Positions 10,816 through 13,800 are shown, counted from the stretch's first letter. The stretch: 64,000 nt of DNA from Candidatus Omnitrophota bacterium (GCA_018825985.1 JAHKAP010000018.1:4134-68133), one strand, 5' to 3'. Translations and numbers: made by a program. The notes: a model not told the origin generated them from the letters alone.

Positions 10816-13800
10816 TTAACTTATCGAATCAACGATAACCAGAGCTTCCCTAAGTTCAGCCGAGCTTTCCAACGCGCTCTCTTCTTCCAGCTTACAGATA
10901 TCTATCAGACAGAGTAAGAGATTGTCAACCTGGGCATTGATCTCTTTCTTCTGGCAACAGGCAGCGATCAACTCTTTAAGCCTGTCACCTGAAGGTATAT
11001 TCCCGGCTTTAACCATATTCCTGATCTGCTCTATCTCAGAAGTAATATTGATCTGCCTTAACTGCTCCTGGCTTAAAACGGGCAAGCTGAAATTCAATCC
11101 CTTAAAACTTCCCGTAGGTTGAATGGTCATGGGTAGGGAGCGTAAGTCGATACCGCCGGTAGTTTCAGGAGCTGATTGAACCGGAGAACTACCTGTACCT
11201 TTGCCTTTAAGCTCAACAGATAGAACCTCGCCCTCCGATGACTTACCTAACAAAATCCTAAAACGTCCATCGCGATCTAACTTAGCAACTACCTGTAACA
11301 AACCACCCTTACTTATAGTATCCGGAGATATCTGGGAATTAACCAGCACGAGTAAGTTCGGCAAAATAAAGTATTCCGTAGCATCGCTCATTATATTTTT
11401 GCCAAAGTGTTCATCAAGAAACTTAGCTACTTTATCCCATGTAGCCGTTGATACATCCACCGGCGAAGCGGCGGAAACTATTACCCGCGTGACATCCGGG
11501 GTATTAAGATCAATACCTGTTTCTACATCAATGATGCGGTTAGTGGTCTCTTCTTCTGCGTCCTTACGCACCAGCTTATCCCTGCCCCATACACTTGCAA
11601 TTATACCTATTCCGATTTTCTCAATTCGCTTTTCAATATCTTGAATGTATAGATGCGCGCTGCGCGTAGGCACATCCCTGCCGTCAGCGGCAAAATGGAT
11701 TACAAATTGGTCTTTTCTTAAGTCTAATTTCTTGGCTAATCTCATCAATGCATACATATGATAAAGTGAAGAATGCACTCCGCCTTCAGAAGCAATGGTT
11801 ATATAATGGAACCTCAAATCATTCTCTTTAACCCTTTGCAATTCTTTTACCAAAACCTGAACCTCGGGCATACTTTCATCAAAGATGCCATCGCGAATAC
11901 CGCCCTTAACCAGCCTATCTACATACCACAAGGGTTGTTTATATTCTCTTAACGCAAACATGGCAAAATGGCCAACATCTGTCTGGCCTGCTTGCAAACC
12001 TCTTAAATGGTGCCTGCCTTCTTCCCAAGATAACTCTTTCCTTAACCCAATCACTTCTCCGTGCGCCTGTAGCTGAGTAAAACCACAGGCATTCTTGACC
12101 AACCAGTCATAATTGGGGGTATTGGCGAGCTTGATAGCGTCCCATTCGTAATTCTGGTCGGGATTTATACCCCAGCCATCCAAAACAGCCATCGCGATCC
12201 TGCGTTTACTTCCCTGATAATCATCAGGCAGCAAGCTCGGGTCGGATCCTTCGGGGATATCTTCTCCCAATAGATGTAATAACGTAGCCCCGTTGTTTCT
12301 AATAGTTTGCCCAGACTTTAAGGTTAATTTCCGGGTTCTTAAAGGATCATAAATAATATACGGTACTGGATTTGCAGTATGGAAAGTATCGGATTCCTTA
12401 GGATTTTCTGTCAGCCCAGCTTCTGAAGCGCCATGATCGGCAGTGATAACAAAGATTGGTATCCTTGCTTCAAAACCATTTATCCTCGAATAAAGTATCT
12501 GATTTATTTCTTTTAATCGGATCAAGAAACTATCATAATCAGTTAATAACAAGTTATCGAGAATAATCCGCGCTCTTTCATCTAGTGGATAAGAAGAAAC
12601 CTCTTCTCTTATTTTCTTAATAAACTGTCTTTTTATGCTATCGATCTTTTCTTTTATCCTTCCGATCTGCTGGTCGGTTATTTCATTGGCCTGTTTAGCT
12701 GACTTAAAGTTTCCGGTATGTTTCATCATATCTGAACCAAGTAAGTTCACCAGAATAAAATCTATAGTATCGTCATCCAATCCTCTCAATACCTCATCGG
12801 TACATTCTTTGGTTTTCATCTGGGGCGTATCTGCATAGGCCTTTTTAGATTTCTGCATTTCTATATTAATCCGCTTTTCTCCGGGATAAGGCCCATCTGT
12901 TTTCTTGCCATCTGCATTATTACCAACATGATCCTTCTTTTCGTTCTCAGAAATCTTAAGCACTTTATACATTTTGTTGGACAATATCTCGAAAAAGGTA
13001 TTAGGCACTTTAGCAATTACCTCATCAGACAAAACACTCTTGCCTTGATAATCATTACTAAATTTGATGTATCCCAATAATTTCTTAAAACCCCTGCTCC
13101 ACAGGCCTCTGGCAAAATATCCGGCCCGGTCACCCCTGACGTGCCCGACCATAACTGAATCTTCCGGCGATATAGGATGCAGCGGCTTACCGTTTTCGTC
13201 AGTAACAACAGTAAACTTTAGTACTTGCTCATTTACATCTTCCTCCAACAGGCTTTGCTCCTGTTCAACTGCCTTAGCTAAATCTGAAATTATCGGCGAG
13301 CCGGCAGCGCTTTTACTTTTTTCGCTATCAAGATGCTTCTTTATTTTATCGCGGGCATCAACAACTTTTCCAATTAACCGGTATCTTTTTTCCTTTTCCT
13401 TATTCAGCTCATCTATTTTTATATTCAATATTTCTAAAGTTTCTTCATTAAGATAGAACCTTAATGTAATAGCTGCGTCTATGGCTACTAAATCGTTTGA
13501 ACTATTGAGTCTTTCTATTAACTCTTTTAAATCATTAAATAAACTTTGGCTGGGGAAAACACCATTTTTATATAACACCTCAAGATTCCTCTCCATAGTT
13601 AAAATAATATTGATATTCGGATTTTCTTTTTTAACCTCCGCTTGCAGCGTTGTAAGATAATTATCAGCATCTTTTGTTTCTGTAACAATTGCCGAAACTA
13701 AACTTGTAACCGCTGAGCCGGCTGCGGTAACTGGCAAGCTAGAGGCGGCGTCAAAAAACGCCCTGGCCCGGCTAAAAATGCGGATAGCGGTTAACATCCC

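Follow-up and report, generated by a model that had tools for sequence, protein, structure and literature searches.

A circularly permuted phosphoglycerate mutase with threonine at the nucleophile position, embedded in a modular protein of Omnitrophota

The DNA considered here is a 64,000-nucleotide stretch of a Candidatus Omnitrophota genome (GCA_018825985.1, JAHKAP010000018.1:4134-68133; hereafter the window), and our subject is a modular protein encoded on its minus strand, which contains a complete but circularly permuted cofactor-independent phosphoglycerate mutase (iPGM). The gene is one long open reading frame (ORF), 10816..15801, if read from an upstream TTG at 15801. Homologues begin with M..RKILSL, which matches the ATG at 15669 and not the TTG, and taking this ATG as the start gives a product of 1,617 residues. 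A Shine-Dalgarno sequence, AGGAG, lies 5' of the ATG at 15681-15677. Residue positions are given below as ORF numbers, counted from the TTG; numbers counted from the ATG (Met#) are ORF numbers minus 44. Promoter-like and terminator-like sites, both of them consensus matches only, flank the gene and suggest that it is framed as a unit of its own, and Rfam gave no match in its 5' region. A partial NCBI protein from a Candidatus Omnitrophica metagenome-assembled genome (MAG), KJ722_04765, is 100% identical to the modular protein, and NCBI labels both the protein and its relatives hypothetical. The positions of all features are collected in Table 1.

The canonical iPGM is collinear and runs phosphatase(1-76)-transferase(77-310)-phosphatase(311-511). 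The module does not follow this order, and instead reads transferase(219-310)-phosphatase(311-503)-phosphatase(4-76)-transferase(77-205). The original prediction, made from the DNA sequence without database searches, had recognised such a rearrangement in a series of motifs, all of which are found in the minus-strand translation of 11458..13302: first HVRGDRAG, ENEKK, DFILVNLLGSDMMKHTG, ITADHG, FHTANPVP and LLHLLG, which normally belong to the second part of the enzyme, and then AVLDGWG, AGQTDVGH, SEGGVHSS, ADGRD and VWGRD. The linker proposed between the two sets, LLPDDYQGSKRR, is also present, although it maps to 12199..12234 (minus strand) and not to 12193..12234. Alignments made with phmmer give the same picture. 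Against the Bacillus/Geobacillus stearothermophilus iPGM (PDB 1EJJ), ORF residues 858-1052 correspond to canonical residues 230-431, 1112-1183 to 434-500, and 1198-1414 to 2-192; against E. coli GpmM (taken from NC_000913), residues 844-1060 correspond to 219-439, 1118-1184 to 440-503, and 1198-1425 to 4-205. The aligned pieces do not overlap, and they jointly span canonical residues 4-205 and 219-503, falling about a dozen residues short at the break, with an identity to canonical iPGMs of ~24-30% in each half. The module is thus a single complete permuted iPGM, as predicted, and the alignments gave neither the two partial copies nor the lost metal ligands that had been named as grounds for doubt.

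Pfam agrees with this description. The whole protein matches Metalloenzyme (PF01676) at 107.4 bits against a cut-off of 24.3, and iPGM_N (PF06415) at 101.5 against 27. When the module was scanned as four consecutive fragments, the matches came in the order iPGM_N 138-199, Metalloenzyme 68-189, Metalloenzyme 2-47 and iPGM_N 2-119, exactly as had been forecast. The permutation break falls at canonical residues ~206-218, slightly earlier than the 220-230 first proposed, in the loop that links two helices of the transferase domain, and both inter-domain hinges are kept in the permuted chain. The new junction between the ancestral termini, GSDPSLLPDDYQG, retains the canonical C-terminal '..SLL' and the N-terminal 'SK..(V/L)LDGWG', and its length is about that of both canonical tails summed. 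The retention of these terminal sequences is what would be expected if the gene had been duplicated in tandem, fused in frame and then trimmed.

Permutations generally arise via tandem duplication, and an intermediate of that process, or an assembly error across one, could mimic a permuted gene; so the permutation might have been only apparent, with a pseudogene, an assembly fault or a pair of incomplete or degenerate copies behind it. An artefact of this kind is excluded by the non-overlapping coverage of canonical residues 4-205 and 219-503, by the frame, which is open through the junction, by 40 proteins from independent assemblies (NCBI, JGI, ENA and Logan) that agree in order and breakpoint, and by the identical partial protein in NCBI.

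An AlphaFold model of the module, built from 16 permuted sequences without templates, has a mean pLDDT of 84.5 and a pTM of 0.86, and the fold that it predicts is the two-domain iPGM fold. When the model was compared with PDB structures, the significant matches were 22 chains, all of them iPGM, and no other fold matched significantly. Each match aligns ~330-365 columns, about half of the model, which is what a sequential aligner would give on meeting a permuted chain. The larger of two insertions, described below, is modelled as helices at 199-278 with a pLDDT of ~90.

For a comparison of active sites, permuted sequences were cut at the junction, rejoined in canonical order and aligned with canonical enzymes. 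The query keeps D12, H66, H123, R153, D154, R185, R261, R264, E335, K336, D403, H407, D444, H445 and H462; apart from H66 and E335, these are the residues that the original prediction had listed, and each of those is retained. Among them are all six Asp/His metal ligands (D12, D403, H407, D444, H445 and H462). The residues of the phosphoglycerate pocket (H66, H123, R153, D154, R185, R261, R264 and K336) are intact, and the replacement of R191 by Lys is a conservative change. The position of the catalytic Ser62 is held by Thr, a substitution that had been predicted and that both the alignment and the codon position confirm. Two further changes, R191 to Lys and H125 to Ser, go beyond those noticed at first. 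In addition, the module has an insertion of ~57 residues and a second one of ~13 residues immediately N-terminal (5') of the nucleophile.

Set beside the canonical iPGM (GpmI/GpmM; 1EJJ, E. coli GpmM), the module therefore has the same Pfam pair, two-domain fold, metal ligands and pocket side chains H123, R153, D154, R185, R261, R264 and K336, but differs in its permuted order, its Thr nucleophile, R191K, H125S and the ~57- and ~13-residue insertions. It also scores below the NCBIfam cut-offs and is embedded in a 1,617-residue protein with a signal-like N-terminus. Since it departs from the collinear order, the Ser nucleophile and the equivalog cut-offs, we regard it as a variant and not as an ordinary member of the iPGM family. 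Thr has precedents in this position: the nucleotide pyrophosphatase/phosphodiesterases (NPP) and the phosphopentomutase DeoB have a two-metal centre with a Thr phospho-acceptor, and Thr is thus a competent nucleophile in the superfamily fold. The module is not a member of the DeoB family (TIGR01696, 11.6 bits against a cut-off of 341.2, E = 0.091), and in contrast to DeoB and NPP its substrate pocket is of the iPGM type.

The permuted module is not an isolated case. A search with the module returned Omnitrophota proteins that match 94-98% of its length, whereas canonical iPGMs matched only 33-57%. Among 395 fetched proteins, 40 are permuted, and they have one common breakpoint. Several of these are stand-alone proteins of 606-635 residues without a signal peptide (P0124, P0125, P0126, P0127 and P0129). 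For example, P0124 has 606 residues, equal to the length of the module between its flanking junction motifs, and its gene sits in unremarkable housekeeping surroundings, beside the genes for homocitrate synthase and LysW on a contig of 223 kb. Restriction of the permutation to exported proteins was rejected, as stand-alone forms exist.

In a rough neighbour-joining tree, the modules with Thr at the nucleophile position form a monophyletic, long-branched clade with fused and free subclades. The subclade of fused or signal-bearing proteins holds the query, P0002-4, P0121/122 and P0240/241, and the other consists mostly of stand-alone proteins, which are presumably cytoplasmic. Named members of the Thr clade are mostly Omnitrophota: among species-representative genomes, those with Thr-type modules are five Omnitrophota MAGs and one that is labelled Planctomycetia, and a representative of the clade, P0241, is labelled Elusimicrobiota. 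S62T and R191K are fixed throughout the clade, H125 is replaced by Ser or Cys, and the ~57-residue insertion is found in the stand-alone members as well. The 15 active-site residues of the query are kept across the clade at every position that the de-permuted alignment covers (R261-R264 are clipped in some sequences, and D12 in P0128). Within the fused subclade the catalytic residues are all conserved at an overall identity of only 57-76%. Such strict conservation in both fused and free forms points to purifying selection on catalysis. As judged from these sequences, the permuted Thr-type iPGM is a recurrent lineage and not a one-off, and it is apparently undescribed. The original prediction knew of no described permuted iPGM, and searches of the full-text literature likewise gave no paper on iPGM and circular permutation together.

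One member of the Thr type lies outside the architectures considered so far. In the MAG labelled Planctomycetia, a Thr-type permuted module (L007:5329 to locus end; CAZGQR010000002.1), 52% identical, begins ~200 residues past a hydrophobic N-terminus. The ORF to which it belongs spans at least 2,809 residues and has no head, tail or junction motif of the kind described below. The module may have been recruited here independently, by another large protein, or the contig may be a mis-binned one from Omnitrophota. We had considered the match as a pseudogene, and rejected this since it belongs to an open ORF of at least 2,809 residues that runs off the locus.

A second group of permuted iPGMs retains Ser. 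An exhaustive search of representatives gave further members of the lineage described above and, in addition, stand-alone, metagenomic proteins of ~490-600 residues (P0268, P0244, P0265, P0342, P0296 and P0277), and Ser-type modules also occur fused, in proteins of 1,220 to 5,027 residues. The Ser-type proteins (P0268, P0244, P0265, P0342 and the module of P0007) have the same permutation and breakpoint as the Thr clade and likewise come in stand-alone and fused forms, but unlike the Thr clade they keep Ser62, R191 and often H125, and have no insertions. P0268, the sole Ser-type protein with which a search was made, has in each half an identity of ~55% to canonical enzymes, and its homologues were mostly canonical iPGMs at ~57% coverage. 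In the rough tree the Ser-type permuted proteins scatter among canonical sequences, so that the permutation may have had several origins, all at one loop; this tree is too weak to establish one common origin for the permuted iPGMs as a whole.

The protein that surrounds the module belongs to a large family. A search with the whole protein gave 866 matches among 8,000 candidates scored, and the best 120 were analysed as a family; every named relative retrieved with the whole protein was from Omnitrophota. They have in common a conserved head (ORF 45-420 in the query; found in 121 fetched proteins at 55-79% identity) and a conserved tail, which starts GGIDLRSLPMTIQP in the query and reads GGIDFRxLPxxIQP..., with a GGIDFR-type motif in 95 of the 120 members. 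Between head and tail, the content varies among these best 120 relatives. According to precomputed Pfam assignments, the middles of the paralogues (P0008-P0120) hold PGK, enolase, GAPDH, TPI, class II aldolase, PGM/PMM and cupin-type GPI domains, and also PEP synthase/PPDK, guanylate and adenylate kinases, NUDIX, HD, ARMT1, an apgM-type mutase and others; some paralogues join consecutive glycolytic steps in one protein. Each of the five head-tail members with an iPGM has it in the permuted form, of the Thr type in P0002-4, of the Ser type in P0007 and degenerate in P0044. A large head-cargo-tail family in which glycolytic enzymes are fitted between one shared signal-bearing head and one shared tail is apparently undescribed, and in the literature searched we found no published definition of the family or of its junction motif.

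Some members of the family merit separate mention. Several paralogues come from one MAG, as judged by common locus-tag prefixes. Residues ~1104-1553 of P0044 are a permuted iPGM-like module with large insertions that lacks D12, H66, D403 and H407, and it is likely a pseudo-enzyme by its sequence. Paralogue P0024 carries an archaeal-type mutase (apgM; PF10143 and PF01676) in place of iPGM, so that the family has recruited two types of phosphoglycerate mutase.

The cargo is set off by a short junction motif, A[GSA]S[PA][VILM], with variants such as AGSPI, AGSAV, AASPV and ASSAV. It occurs 297 times in the 120 family proteins against 6.5 expected by shuffling, a 46-fold enrichment, and its tetrapeptides are the most over-represented words of the variable middles; the other ORFs of the window contain it once in 17,451 residues. 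The query has four strict motifs, at ORF 421, 694, 833 and 1444, in addition to GSSPV at 1537, and the iPGM module sits exactly between two of them. The motif residues at both ends of the AlphaFold model have a pLDDT below 50 and are thus predicted to be unstructured. The motif is absent from three larger proteins that we checked, of 1,220-5,027 residues, which are multi-domain and include permuted iPGM modules. It may mark sites of proteolysis or serve as an O-glycosylation sequon, or it may be nothing more than a linker.

The remaining parts of the protein were without informative matches. The head, the tail and modules A-C gave no PHROG or credible Pfam match, and PADLOC gave for them a sole, marginal match, of module B to SduA (E = 0.0025, 15 bits). 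A family profile run against PDB sequences returned coiled-coil noise only. A tblastn high-scoring segment pair against the locus of P0004 (L004) covers query Met# 650-1445 and runs across module B. The neighbourhoods of the query, P0002, P0059, P0022 and P0124 hold housekeeping genes only, with no conserved protease, secretion system or partner.

The modular protein begins with a signal-peptide-like segment, MARKILSLVLSFGLLFQQVSFAQ, which by inspection is parsed as MARK / ILSLVLSFGLLF / QQVSFA|Q, with S-F-A preceding the mature part. This is the strongest hydrophobic window in the protein, with a Kyte-Doolittle (KD) value of 1.64; the next most hydrophobic segment, Met# 645-663, reaches 1.56, under the usual threshold of ~1.6, and the KD scan found no other segment of transmembrane (TM) grade. 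The signal-like N-terminus is conserved across the head-tail family. In addition, signal-like N-termini precede permuted iPGM modules in several unrelated architectures (P0121, P0122, P0123, P0241, P0366, P0250 and the giant L007 ORF), whereas the stand-alone permuted enzymes have none. Translocation of the host protein by Sec to the periplasm or cell surface is most likely on these features. The original prediction had taken the protein to be exported; the N-terminus and its recurrence in related fusions speak for this, both being features of sequence.

Taken together, we think it probable that the module is a functional member of the Thr-type permuted iPGM lineage and that it is carried as cargo by an exported head-cargo-tail protein. 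Catalysis would then follow the canonical course: phosphoglycerate would bind in the cleft between the two domains, as in canonical iPGM; the phosphate would move to a hydroxyl nucleophile on a two-metal (Mn2+-type) centre; and the glycerate would reorient so that the phosphate is handed back to its other hydroxyl. The covalent intermediate would be a phospho-threonine instead of a phospho-serine. The Thr clade, marked by S62T, R191K, a four-helix insertion and the 13-residue insertion before the nucleophile, has a stand-alone branch and a branch within large proteins with signal-like N-termini. In the present protein the module is one junction-delimited cargo, and paralogues would bring other glycolytic and sugar-phosphate enzymes to the periplasm or surface.

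Several observations weigh against this reading. The NCBIfam equivalog cut-offs are missed, with 215.3 bits against 330.65 for TIGR01307 and 147 against 862 for NF003897. S62T, R191K and H125S, together with two insertions beside the active site, could mean an altered substrate. The AlphaFold model was built on a shallow alignment of 16 sequences. The c-region of the N-terminus is unusually conserved for a plain Sec signal, and the signal was called by inspection. Moreover, glycolytic enzymes outside the cytoplasm would be without an obvious supply of substrate or cofactor.

The first two of these points would suit a module that has kept the iPGM fold and changed its function, to a phosphatase or to a phosphomutase acting on another phospho-acid or phospho-sugar. 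The substitutions (S62T, R191K, H125S/C) and the insertions, next to the nucleophile and after the GHTG helix, are clade-wide, and Thr-nucleophile enzymes of the alkaline phosphatase superfamily, such as NPP and phosphopentomutase, act on other substrates. We nevertheless consider a changed function unlikely. The pocket Arg, His, Lys and Asp residues of the Bacillus enzyme are all retained, with the exception of the conservative R191K, and stand-alone members of the clade resemble ordinary single-copy housekeeping genes. The equivalog match is broken into three pieces by the permutation, and the low scores are largely due to this splitting.

A different alternative leaves the enzyme as it is and moves it: the modular protein could stay in the cytoplasm, or tethered to the membrane, as a polyprotein precursor from which housekeeping enzymes, iPGM among them, are released by cuts at the junction motifs. 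The cargo consists of classic cytoplasmic enzymes that require ATP or NAD, the enriched motif flanks the modules precisely and is predicted to be unstructured, and the 606-residue module has the size of a free enzyme. The genes of the family are dispersed between housekeeping genes and have no partner for secretion beside them. Authors writing on Omnitrophota giant proteins have proposed cleavage, without cleavage sites. Such a polyprotein has, in our judgement, a modest but real chance of being right. However, the N-terminus has the charge pattern and the short h-region of a cleavable Sec signal, and the protein includes no protease domain, nor is a protease gene conserved beside it. PFK, aldolase-like, PEPCK and Pta genes stand on their own elsewhere in the window, and the motif is equally explicable as a flexible linker or an O-glycosylation sequon.

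A third possibility gives catalysis no part at all. Omnitrophota are thought to adhere to the cells of their hosts, and a glycolytic enzyme behind a signal-like N-terminus could serve as a binding or scaffolding surface, a hard-wired counterpart of the 'moonlighting' glycolytic enzymes that other bacteria employ as adhesins on their surface; the degenerate module of P0044, without D12, H66, D403 and H407, would be in keeping with such a use. The conservation of all catalytic residues across the fused subclade, at the divergence given above, is hard to explain without selection on catalysis, and makes this role quite improbable. Our preferred reading remains a functional Thr-type enzyme carried by an exported protein.

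Enzyme domains in signal-bearing proteins have a parallel in the same phylum. Recent preprints describe giant proteins of Omnitrophota ('Archaeovorins'; 'multi-enzyme metabolic clusters' of at least 10,000 residues) that have signal or TM segments and sugar-metabolism domains, and propose that they are cleaved into smaller products at sites that are not known. The modular protein resembles them in its phylum and in the joining of a signal-like segment and a sugar-metabolism enzyme domain in one polypeptide. The giant proteins reach tens of thousands of residues and have numerous TM helices and enzyme Pfams; the modular protein has 1,617 residues, one hydrophobic segment, at its N-terminus, and one recognisable enzyme. 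It also differs in its membership of the head-tail family, which has a junction motif of its own, and in the giant-protein preprints we found no description of family or motif. The head-tail family bears on the open question that the giant proteins raise, namely why metabolic enzymes are placed in signal-bearing polypeptides, and whether and where these are cleaved.

By way of analogy only, MARTX-type modular effector polyproteins are likewise conserved at their ends, carry interchangeable enzymes in between and have short conserved stretches that separate the modules. The query has no relationship to MARTX in sequence or fold and no autoprotease domain, and its cargo is glycolytic and not made up of toxins.

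One may speculate, tentatively and at well below the confidence that we place in the module itself, that Omnitrophota use Sec-exported head-cargo-tail polyproteins for the placement of intact glycolytic and sugar-phosphate enzymes (permuted iPGM, PGK, enolase, GAPDH, TPI, aldolase, PGM/PMM, GPI and PEP-utilising enzymes) in the periplasm, on the surface or in prey. The organisms are ultra-small and probably predatory or host-dependent. The junctions would be the sites of processing or modification that have long been sought in the multi-enzyme proteins of Omnitrophota, and the permuted iPGM would be a form that tolerates fusion, acquired at least twice, as all five head-tail members with an iPGM have it permuted.

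What makes the module of wider interest is that a textbook glycolytic enzyme would here be circularly permuted in nature and, in addition, have switched its nucleophile from Ser to Thr. The permuted Thr enzyme is a ready test of connectivity and of nucleophile identity in a two-domain, hinge-closing phosphotransferase. There is also a practical consequence, since scores below the equivalog cut-offs mean that profile-based reconstructions can miss a phosphoglycerate mutase in Omnitrophota or label its gene hypothetical.

Table 1. Features of the modular protein gene and its flanks, from 5' to 3' on the minus strand (positions in the window)
Feature	Position	Strand	Remarks
Promoter-like site, TTGAAA-17-TATATT with extended TG	15899..15927	(-)	Consensus scan, 10/12 positions; consensus match only
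Whole gene	10816..15669	(-)	1,617 aa from ATG at 15669; stop at 10816-10818
Signal-peptide-like N-terminus	15601..15669	(-)	Basic n-region, 12-residue hydrophobic core, small -3/-1 residues; by inspection
Head domain, conserved, ~350 aa, function unassigned	14542..15600	(-)	Shared within the Omnitrophota head-tail family
Junction motif AGSPI	14527..14541	(-)	ORF 421-425
Module A, unassigned	13723..14526	(-)	ORF 426-693; one weak relative among fetched proteins
Junction motif AGSAV	13708..13722	(-)	ORF 694-698
Module B, unassigned	13306..13707	(-)	ORF 699-832; no blastp relative among fetched proteins except P0001
Junction motif AGSPI, directly before iPGM module	13291..13305	(-)	ORF 833-837
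Complete circularly permuted iPGM module	11473..13290	(-)	ORF 838-1443, 606 aa
Transferase domain, second half (canonical ~219-310), with R261, R264 (HVRGDRAG)	13012..13272	(-)	phmmer against GpmM; Pfam iPGM_N profile 138-199
Phosphatase domain, C-terminal part (canonical ~311-503), with K336, D403/H407, D444/H445, H462	12250..13011	(-)	Alignments, Pfam
Thr-clade-specific insertion, ~57 aa, predicted helical bundle, between GHTG helix and ITADHG strand	12451..12621	(-)	ORF 1061-1117; gap against 1EJJ and GpmM
New junction, ancestral C-terminus to ancestral N-terminus, ~13 residues	12211..12249	(-)	Between the alignments to GpmM 503 and GpmM 4
Phosphatase domain, N-terminal part (canonical ~4-76), with D12, ~13-aa insertion, Thr nucleophile, H66	11932..12210	(-)	Alignments, Pfam
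Thr codon at the catalytic Ser62 position	11980..11982	(-)	ORF residue 1274 (1230 from ATG); alignments
Transferase domain, first half (canonical ~77-205), with H123, R153/D154, R185, K(191)	11473..11931	(-)	Alignments; Pfam iPGM_N profile 2-119
Junction motif AASPV, directly after iPGM module	11458..11472	(-)	ORF 1444-1448
Module C, small, unassigned	11194..11457	(-)	ORF 1449-1536; no relatives among fetched proteins
Junction-like motif GSSPV, before tail	11179..11193	(-)	ORF 1537-1541; equivalent motif precedes tail in homologues
Tail domain, conserved, ~120 aa	10819..11178	(-)	ORF 1542-1661; 113 fetched proteins, ~70-80% identity
Terminator-like hairpin and T-run	10758..10774	(-)	42 nt past stop codon; consensus match only

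Directly upstream of the modular protein gene lies a prepilin (type IV leader) peptidase gene, at 16078-16896 on the minus strand. No such gene was seen beside the three head-tail relatives examined, and the N-terminus of the modular protein is not pilin-like; the adjacency is probably coincidental.

Nearly all ORFs of at least 150 residues in the window (1-64000) lie on the minus strand, and the few plus-strand ORFs overlap longer minus-strand ones. There is no second phosphoglycerate mutase and no second copy of the head or tail in these 64 kb. The window is otherwise core chromosome, with genes for thioredoxin, Pta, PanD, Def, TrxB, PEPCK, the prepilin peptidase, AroE, LeuA and IlvC/IlvD/IlvB, and further for PFK, an aldolase-like protein, SAM-cycle enzymes, PTS enzyme I, RecJ, ArgS, Rho and PolA. 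The class II aldolase-like protein has 440 residues and a weak Pfam match (E = 7e-17). PFK, the aldolase-like protein, PTS enzyme I, a GTP-type PEPCK and phosphotransacetylase are free-standing (25797-28130, 31537-33267, 5684-7594 and 9426-10355), and the organism thus also encodes central-carbon enzymes as ordinary stand-alone genes.

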